Below are positions 60,462 through 60,690 of a DNA stretch of 64,000 bases, piece after piece. The notes under the pieces were generated by a model. The model was not told where the DNA came from. It worked only from the letters and a program-made list of their open reading frames with translations, and ran no database searches. Position 1 is the first letter of the stretch; each line of letters starts with the position of its first letter. The position numbers and the translations under genes are program-made. Source of the DNA: Escherichia coli (GTDB taxonomy: Bacteria > Pseudomonadota > Gammaproteobacteria > Enterobacterales > Enterobacteriaceae); NCBI RefSeq assembly GCF_003334355.1, contig NZ_QOWP01000012.1; one strand, 5' to 3'.

Positions 60462-60690
60462 AACTATTTGCCGGATGCGGCGTAAACGCCTTATCCGGCC
60501 TACGGTTCGATGCGATTTGTAGGTCGGATAAGATGCGCAAGCATCGCATCCGACAATAAGTGCCGGATGCTGCGAAAATGCCTTATCTGGCCTACAGATT
60601 CGATGCGATTCGTAGGTCGGATAAGATGCGCAAGCATCGCATCCGACAATAAGTGCCGAATGCGACCTACATTCACATGGCGCTTTTTAC
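60462..60690. repeat. Tandemly reiterated REP/BIME cluster (about two copies of a roughly 94-bp unit plus a partial)
   Basis: CGATGCGATTTGTAGGTCGGATAAGATGCGCAAGCATCGCATCCGACAATAAGTGCCGGATGC repeated nearly verbatim; alternating REP units of opposite orientation. Confidence 0.75.

Follow-up and report, generated by a model that had tools for sequence, protein, structure and literature searches.

A BIME-2-type REP array between ybhC and ybhJ, two convergent genes of Escherichia coli

The 64,000-nt stretch of Escherichia coli DNA considered here (the window; contig NZ_QOWP01000012.1 of RefSeq assembly GCF_003334355.1) contains the convergent genes ybhC and ybhJ, which were named from the RefSeq annotation of identical or near-identical loci. 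Their ORFs are separated by 233 nt from stop codon to stop codon (60454-60686). The mechanical ORF of ybhJ extends to 62972; the RefSeq call comprises 2262 nt. The spacer between both genes is occupied by a tandem array of REP sequences, the parts of which are listed in Table 1.

Table 1. Features of the ybhC-ybhJ locus, with positions in the window
Feature	Position	Strand	Remarks
ybhC CDS	59170-60453	+	upstream convergent gene; stop codon TAA at 60451-60453; from the ORF list and RefSeq relatives
Linker from ybhC stop to first REP, 15 nt	60454-60468		length constant and sequence variable in 9 of 9 Escherichia alleles
Y1, Y-type REP, TGCCGGATGCGGCGTAAACGCCTTATCCGGCCTAC	60469-60503	+	CTAC at the plus-strand 3' end (iREP orientation); predicted hairpin -21.3 kcal/mol
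S1, head-to-head linker, 15 nt, GGTTCGATGCGATTT	60504-60518		
135-aa ORF	60510-60917	+	starts in S1, ends antisense inside ybhJ
Z2a, inverted 37-nt Z2-type REP, GTAGGTCGGATAAGATGCGCAAGCATCGCATCCGACA	60519-60555	+	GTAG at the plus-strand 5' end; predicted hairpin -19.9 kcal/mol
Y2 and Z2a pair, naRNA4 match	60522-60592	-	Rfam RF02564, 60.7 bits against a gathering score of 59.5
Tail-to-tail linker ATAAG	60556-60560		
Y2, degraded Y REP	60561-60595	+	4 substitutions relative to Y1; marks the second unit
S2, head-to-head linker, 16 nt, AGATTCGATGCGATTC	60596-60611		
Z2b, second inverted Z2-type REP	60612-60648	+	37 of 37 positions identical to Z2a
Second tail-to-tail linker ATAAG	60649-60653		
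Stub, 17 nt, TGCCGAATGCGACCTAC	60654-60670	+	REP with both feet, without the top of the stem-loop
Tail, 16 nt, ATTCACATGGCGCTTT	60671-60686		runs up to the ybhJ stop codon
ybhJ CDS	60687-62948	-	downstream convergent gene; stop codon at 60687-60689 (TTA on the plus strand)

Composition and identity of the spacer array

An earlier note on this DNA had described, at 60462-60690, a unit of roughly 94 bp with two oppositely oriented REPs that is repeated almost exactly twice and followed by a partial third copy. The only array called by Tandem Repeats Finder lies at 60469-60664 and has a period of 93, 2.1 copies, 91% matches, no indels and a score of 334, and a repeat finder returned direct repeats of 65 nt (60506-60570 and 60599-60663, 97% identity, spacing 93) and of 35 nt (60469-60503 and 60561-60595, 89% identity, spacing 92). 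Both results bear out the tandem duplication. The periodicity is real and far beyond chance for 550 nt, and the interval given in the earlier note brackets the array, being off by a few bases at most.

Two tandem units and a 17-nt stub span positions 60469-60670, the duplicated units measuring 92 and 93 nt instead of 94. Each unit consists of a Y-type REP, a linker of 15-16 nt, an inverted Z2-type REP, and the motif ATAAG. The units differ by six substitutions and one indel, all of which lie in the half formed by the Y REP and its linker, so that 7 of 7 differences fall within the first 51 of 93 alignment columns (P about 0.015 under an even spread), and there is no difference between the Z2-ATAAG halves. 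Accordingly, the almost exact repetition holds for the Z2-ATAAG half but not for the Y half, in which Y2 is degraded and its predicted hairpin reaches -12.6 kcal/mol (-8.7 kcal/mol on the minus strand) compared to -21.3 kcal/mol for Y1.

REPs have been defined as imperfect palindromes of 30-40 nt with a GTAG foot and a mismatch in the stem, and BIME-2 elements as tandem copies of y and z2 REPs, the number of which varies between strains at a given locus (PMC3333891). The array contains four full REPs of 35-37 nt in alternating orientation, each of which either ends with CCTAC or starts with GTAGG. Their predicted hairpins range from -12.6 to -21.3 kcal/mol, with three of the four at about -20 kcal/mol, and every REP fold on either strand contains a stem mismatch in the form of a 1x1 or 2x2 internal loop, which is also present in the Rfam consensus structure. 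The array is wholly extragenic, lying between the stop codons of ybhC and ybhJ. Its parts belong to high-copy REP sequences, as indicated by a 901-nt query (60100-61000), for which the median number of places matched in an E. coli genome was 25; for a 54-mer containing Y1 it was 18.

Further information on the REP types comes from the Rfam family naRNA4 (RF02564), which corresponds to the Y+Z2 pair of the REP325 array. Y1 does not differ at any base from hairpin 1 of the naRNA4 consensus, and the Z2-type REP aligns to the whole second hairpin with changes on both stem arms that keep the pairing. The match on the minus strand covers model positions 1-77 and lies above the gathering threshold, and five weaker, partial matches below the threshold cover the remaining REPs of the spacer. 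An assignment of the second REP type to z2 is thus consistent with the Rfam model and with the lengths. The linkers measure 15-16 nt (head-to-head) and 5 nt (tail-to-tail), and their S and s labels are given by length. The feet, the alternating palindromes, and the naRNA4 match above threshold agree with the REP/BIME identity proposed in the earlier note.

Two other explanations for the repeat were rejected. A BIME-1 element (RIP/RIB), which consists of a single y-z1 pair with a long L linker and an IHF site, does not fit, because the linkers are 15-16 nt long, the pair is tandemly repeated, and the IHF consensus is absent from both strands of the spacer (searched as WATCAANNNNTTR and WATCARNNNNTTR). 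An assembly artefact is ruled out, as K-12 has the identical spacer and thousands of independently assembled complete genomes share it. In addition, no transposase gene adjoins the array, whose only neighbours are ybhC and ybhJ, so that the locus is not a REPtron. Overall, the spacer is very probably filled by a BIME-2-type array of two Y-linker-inverted Z2-ATAAG units and an old truncated REP. The element is of an ordinary, already-known kind at a locus that is already present in K-12. In RefSeq NC_000913.3, the ybhC-ybhJ spacer carries no repeat_region feature, and a literature search on ybhC and REP returned no paper on this array.

With BIME-2 elements the array shares alternating inverse y and z2 REPs, short linkers, tandem pairs, an extragenic 3' site, strain-variable copy number, and the lack of an IHF site; nothing essential differs. 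However, the array is small, having two units compared to up to six in REP325, one of its Y copies is degraded, and it ends in a truncated REP. Furthermore, its Z2 has the variant outer stem GTCGGAT/ATCCGAC instead of GCCTGAT/ATCAGGC, and this variant is almost locus-specific with a median of two places per genome. The Y+Z2 building block is common to the array and to REP325, the naRNA sub-units of which have been described as one Z2 and one Y palindromic unit. In contrast to REP325, which comprises 12 hairpins between the tandem genes yjdM and yjdN of one operon, the ybhC-ybhJ array has four hairpins and a stub between convergent genes. Inverted REP pairs, GTAG feet, and the stem mismatch are also found in REPIN/RAYT systems, in which doublets are mobilised by a domesticated IS200/IS605-like Y1 transposase; the feet and the mismatch are features that TnpA-REP needs for binding and cleavage (PMC3333891). 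Unlike these systems, the locus has no neighbouring transposase gene, and its rearrangements are all in-register homologous exchanges with no evidence of transposition.

In 15 unit copies from at least five lineages, the canonical folds of the hairpins retain 97.8% pairing. Covariation analysis of these 15 copies found no compensatory pairs in the canonical hairpins and only one-sided (wobble) changes; it therefore provides no independent evidence of selection on structure, and conservation rests on the percentage of paired positions only. RNA folds of the whole spacer pair neighbouring inverted REPs into long hairpins. These folds were taken as thermodynamic upper bounds and not as co-transcriptional structures, and single-REP folds were used instead. 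In Escherichia albertii, units 1 and 3 each have paired transitions, at alignment columns 69/79 and 70/78. Compensation results only if the top of Z2 forms an alternative helix (GCG/CGC, AAGAT being bulged out); in the canonical REP fold there is none. The signal for this helix, which was picked after seeing the data and comprises two events only, was reached by 6 of 500 shuffles. Either selection for a second conformation or mutation templated by the hairpin could lie behind the transitions.

Allelic variation in E. coli and related species

The distribution of the array was surveyed by megablast of positions 60100-61000 against 5,426 complete E. coli genomes, all of which matched; the matched regions are annotated as ybhC and ybhJ. 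The spacer of the window is base-for-base identical in K-12 BW2952 and corresponds to positions 805,765-805,997 of MG1655. Spacer lengths of 70 nt (without REPs), 140/141 nt, 233/234 nt, and 326 nt were found. A REP-type spacer is present in 4823 of the 5426 genomes (about 89%). Y2, the marker of the second unit, occurs in 2781 genomes (51%), and subtracting these carriers from the REP-type total gives about 2,040 genomes (38%) with one-unit alleles. The REP-less 70-nt spacer was found in 527 genomes (9.7%), among them SMS-3-5 of phylogroup F, and about 76 genomes have other spacer types, an insertion of IS200C into the REP-less spacer being one example. An evenly spaced sample of 39 genomes gave a ratio of 20 : 15 : 4 for two-unit, one-unit, and REP-less spacers, in agreement with the census.

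Apart from the number of units, the REP-type alleles differ in the combination of their parts. One-unit spacers of 141 nt include unit 2 alone and a fusion of Y1 to the unit-2 linker (Y1S2), the latter being present in about 249 genomes including O103:H2 12009. Re-duplication of this fused unit, (Y1S2)x2, results in a spacer of 234 nt, which is also the length of a 2-2 allele, and a true three-unit 1-2-2 array has 326 nt. The exact S2-Z2-s-Y2-S2 junction occurs in 5 of the 5426 genomes; one of the two such loci retrieved is a three-unit spacer of 326 nt and the other, from E. coli BHUCD02, is the 2-2 allele. Three-unit alleles are thus very rare. BHUCD02 has a genome of 4,641,766 bp, the size of K-12 MG1655, and in its 2-2 array of 234 nt unit 1 is converted to unit 2; this could be a real recent conversion or an artefact of assembly or polishing.

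All the intermediates that unequal crossing-over, replication slippage or gene conversion should leave behind were present, namely 1, 2, 1-2, 1-2-2, 2-2, Y1S2, and (Y1S2)x2. Comparison of the alleles shows that the array expands, contracts, and converts by in-register exchange between the 93-nt repeats, for which RecA, slippage, and the REP transposase are candidate drivers. The expectation that copy number varies between strains is confirmed by the occurrence of one, two, and three units and of REP-less spacers at the ybhC-ybhJ junction of these 5,426 genomes. The suggested use as a strain marker stands in part: the locus separates broad lineages, but recurrent expansion, contraction, and conversion make it unreliable at the level of strains. 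Since the same states arise repeatedly, it is a coarse, homoplasic lineage marker.

The REP-less allele consists of an unrelated spacer of 70 nt with hairpin and T-tract terminators that face both genes (e.g. in SCU-301 and 2016C-3878). A terminator scan of this allele yielded three sites, by which both strands are covered. Homology between REP-bearing and REP-less alleles breaks exactly at both stop codons; in the 527 genomes, the terminator pair replaces the array precisely from one stop codon to the other. No source of the 70-nt spacer was found among 50 Enterobacteriaceae ybhC loci, in the window or in PLSDB plasmids. In E. coli 50579417, a copy of IS200C (tnpA, IS200/IS605 family) lies within the REP-less spacer, just past the ybhC stop codon and beside the first terminator hairpin.

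For comparison with other species, ybhC loci were retrieved with a degenerate DNA pattern for the C-terminal motif of YbhC, taking one genome per species, with E. fergusonii outside the sample. This pattern gave 50 Enterobacteriaceae loci, in 9 of which ybhJ is still convergent. E. albertii NBRC 107761 has five units and the stub in a spacer of 513 nt, E. whittamii one unit and the stub, Escherichia sp. E1V33 two units, and two divergent records labelled "E. coli" one unit each. In all REP-bearing Escherichia outgroups, 15 nt lie between the ybhC stop codon and the first Y REP, and 16 nt between the stub and the stop codon of ybhJ; these borders are unchanged across a flank divergence of roughly 7-9% within the genus. 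Because the same borders and the stub are found in E. albertii, E. whittamii, and strain E1V33, both array and stub are older than E. coli. What the earlier note had called a partial third copy thus exists as the 17-nt stub, but it is old and genus-wide and occurs in every REP-bearing allele at any copy number; on its 3' side, the array invariably ends with this stub in the REP-bearing alleles and species examined. The stub thus marks the array's ancient closed end and is no recent partial duplication.

Within a given genome, the Z2 copies do not differ from one another, whereas those of different species do, with CAAGC occurring twice in the window and GTCAGC twice in strain E1V33, which points to a conversion that would affect only the Z2 half. 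The 3' end of ybhC in strain E1V33 is 92.6% identical to that of the window, and the second Y REP of this strain has three of the four substitutions of the degraded Y2. Together with the species-specific Z2 sequences, this sharing suggests either concerted evolution of one half of the unit or a transfer of the array between species. Outside Escherichia, the ybhC-ybhJ junction of Citrobacter gillenii and Citrobacter sp. Res13 holds two REPs of a type of their own, ordered GTAG-first, suggesting independent colonisation of the same convergent spacer by REPs. Citrobacter sp. MGH106 and C. sedlakii have a plain hairpin terminator at this position.

Open reading frames and possible roles of the array

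The array gives rise to an ORF of 135 aa with an ATG start codon and the repeated peptide MRFVGRIRCASIASDNKCRM, which the earlier note had regarded as spurious. The frame spans both Z2 REPs and then enters ybhJ, to which 77 codons are antisense. Its ATGs recur every 93 nt, and since 93 nt equal 31 codons, the ORF is an arithmetic artefact of the repeat. Its length follows the copy number mechanically, with 104, 135, and 166 aa for one, two, and three units, and it is missing from the REP-less allele. An open frame of 135 codons with an ATG does exist, but there is next to no chance that this ORF, or one of 58 aa on the minus strand, encodes a real repeat-containing protein: the exact products of both are absent from about 15 billion predicted proteins, though the DNA is present in thousands of genomes, and RefSeq has no annotation at the position of either ORF. 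These observations bear out the verdict of the earlier note, and the ORFs created by the array are artefacts.

A scan of positions 60300-60850 detected no intrinsic terminator-like sites on either strand and no promoter-like sites. The array may act as a bidirectional 3'-end module and possibly as a gyrase site, a role to which we assign about even chances and which is the most likely of those weighed. It is proposed because the REP spacer has no terminator, while the alternative allele places terminators that face both genes at the same position. The array would serve as the 3'-end module of both the ybhC and the ybhJ transcript, in that its REP hairpins could block 3'-to-5' exonucleases and could act as partial, Rho-assisted terminators that limit convergent read-through. 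The intrinsic terminators of the REP-less allele occupy the same position and presumably have the same task, forming the 3' ends of both transcripts. The REP hairpins, in contrast, lack a T-tract, so that any termination would be partial and dependent on assistance by Rho. As a BIME-2, the array is also a candidate for a transcription-independent gyrase site.

Comparable functions have been described for other REPs. REP325 has been reported to stabilise mRNA and to terminate transcription in a partly Rho-dependent manner; REPs occur in about 30% of the spacers between convergent genes, and of the REPs at such sites nearly 40% fall in mapped bidirectional terminators; terminal REPs had no genome-wide effect on half-life, and their effects were context-dependent (bioRxiv 10.64898/2026.03.23.713779). 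In the supplements of the REP paper, ybhC and ybhJ appear only in expression tables. Gyrase cleavage sites are over-represented in BIME-2 elements, where y REPs are favoured; the supplements of that study name neither ybhC nor ybhJ (PMC6379681).

The element is not essential, and neither is its exact copy number, since Y2 is degraded and about 10% of E. coli have no REP at this position. It is also conceivable, though we consider it doubtful and rank it after the 3'-end module, that the array is a neutral or selfish passenger, a REPIN-like doublet that was spread by a REP-associated tyrosine transposase and is tolerated in a safe convergent 3' spacer. TnpA-REP cleaves and recombines BIMEs in vitro and has been proposed to drive their amplification (PMC3333891), and a passenger would be compatible with a copy number that ranges from zero to five without obvious consequence, with the decay of Y2, and with the long hairpins that join neighbouring inverted REPs in the whole-spacer fold. 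The Citrobacter REPs, being of their own type and in another order at the same junction, likewise suggest repeated colonisation of a permissive site. However, a passenger does not account well for array borders that have been kept throughout the flank divergence of the genus, for a spacer without any other terminator, or for a REP-less allele that gained a proper bidirectional terminator rather than nothing. Moreover, no transposase is needed for the rearrangements observed, all of which are in-register homologous exchanges.

Two further proposals concern the transcript and its translation. A ribosome that terminates at a stop codon with a REP hairpin less than 16 nt away becomes stalled (Liang et al. 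2015, as summarised in PMC12306157), and the first hairpin of the array might lower the output of YbhC in this way. Such an effect is rather unlikely, and it would be a compatible addition to the 3'-end module and not a substitute for it. In 9 of 9 Escherichia alleles, exactly 15 nt separate the ybhC stop codon from Y1 despite the variable sequence of the linker, but the paired stem begins at 60470, which is 16 nt past the stop and right on the threshold, so that the outcome hinges on the counting convention; the tandem array and the ybhJ side are left unexplained. Considerably less probable still is a gene for an sRNA of the naRNA4 family, as originally proposed for naRNA4 (PMC4550694), whose product would bind HU and help to condense the nucleoid. 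The full-length RF02564 match, just above the gathering score, is in line with such a gene, but the Rfam model amounts to a pair of Y and Z2 REPs and will thus match any BIME-2, two other sites in the window score higher, and the array has no promoter-like site in 60300-60850. In addition, a 2026 preprint finds no measurable nucleoid compaction by REP325/naRNA4 and reports that REP-REP contacts are HU-independent.

Within E. coli and close relatives, the spacer forms a natural allelic series, which ranges from a bidirectional intrinsic terminator without REPs over one, two, and three units to five units in E. albertii. It is conceivable, though doubtful, that the terminator and REP kinds of spacer are functionally interchangeable 3'-end modules. 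The precise swap for a bidirectional terminator in about 10% of E. coli supports, without proving it, the view that REPs between convergent genes are local regulators of 3' ends. If both kinds of spacer are interchangeable, the locus would be a ready-made test bed for the debated local functions of REPs as terminator, stabiliser or gyrase site.

Annotation and other elements of the window

For clean annotation, the array is best labelled as a REP/BIME-2 repeat region, with its internal ORFs ignored; otherwise, the element is of little consequence. In assembly and variant calling, a length polymorphism of about 92-93 nt, corresponding to one unit, is to be expected at the ybhC-ybhJ junction. 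A modest addition to the known context of such elements is that this array is older than E. coli and evolves by in-register gain, loss, and conversion of units.

Several other elements were noticed in the window. Two further naRNA4-type REP pairs with scores above that of the ybhC-ybhJ locus are located at 1981-2058 on the minus strand and at 28793-28863 on the plus strand. Rfam matches above threshold were also obtained for ES036 at three positions on the plus strand (8772-8814, 34099-34141, and 50804-50845) and for a molybdenum-cofactor riboswitch at 49395-49539 on the minus strand. The spacer between ybhB and ybhC contains the exact attB core of phage lambda, GCTTTTTTATACTAA, at 59109-59123 on the minus strand; there is no prophage, and the site is unoccupied.
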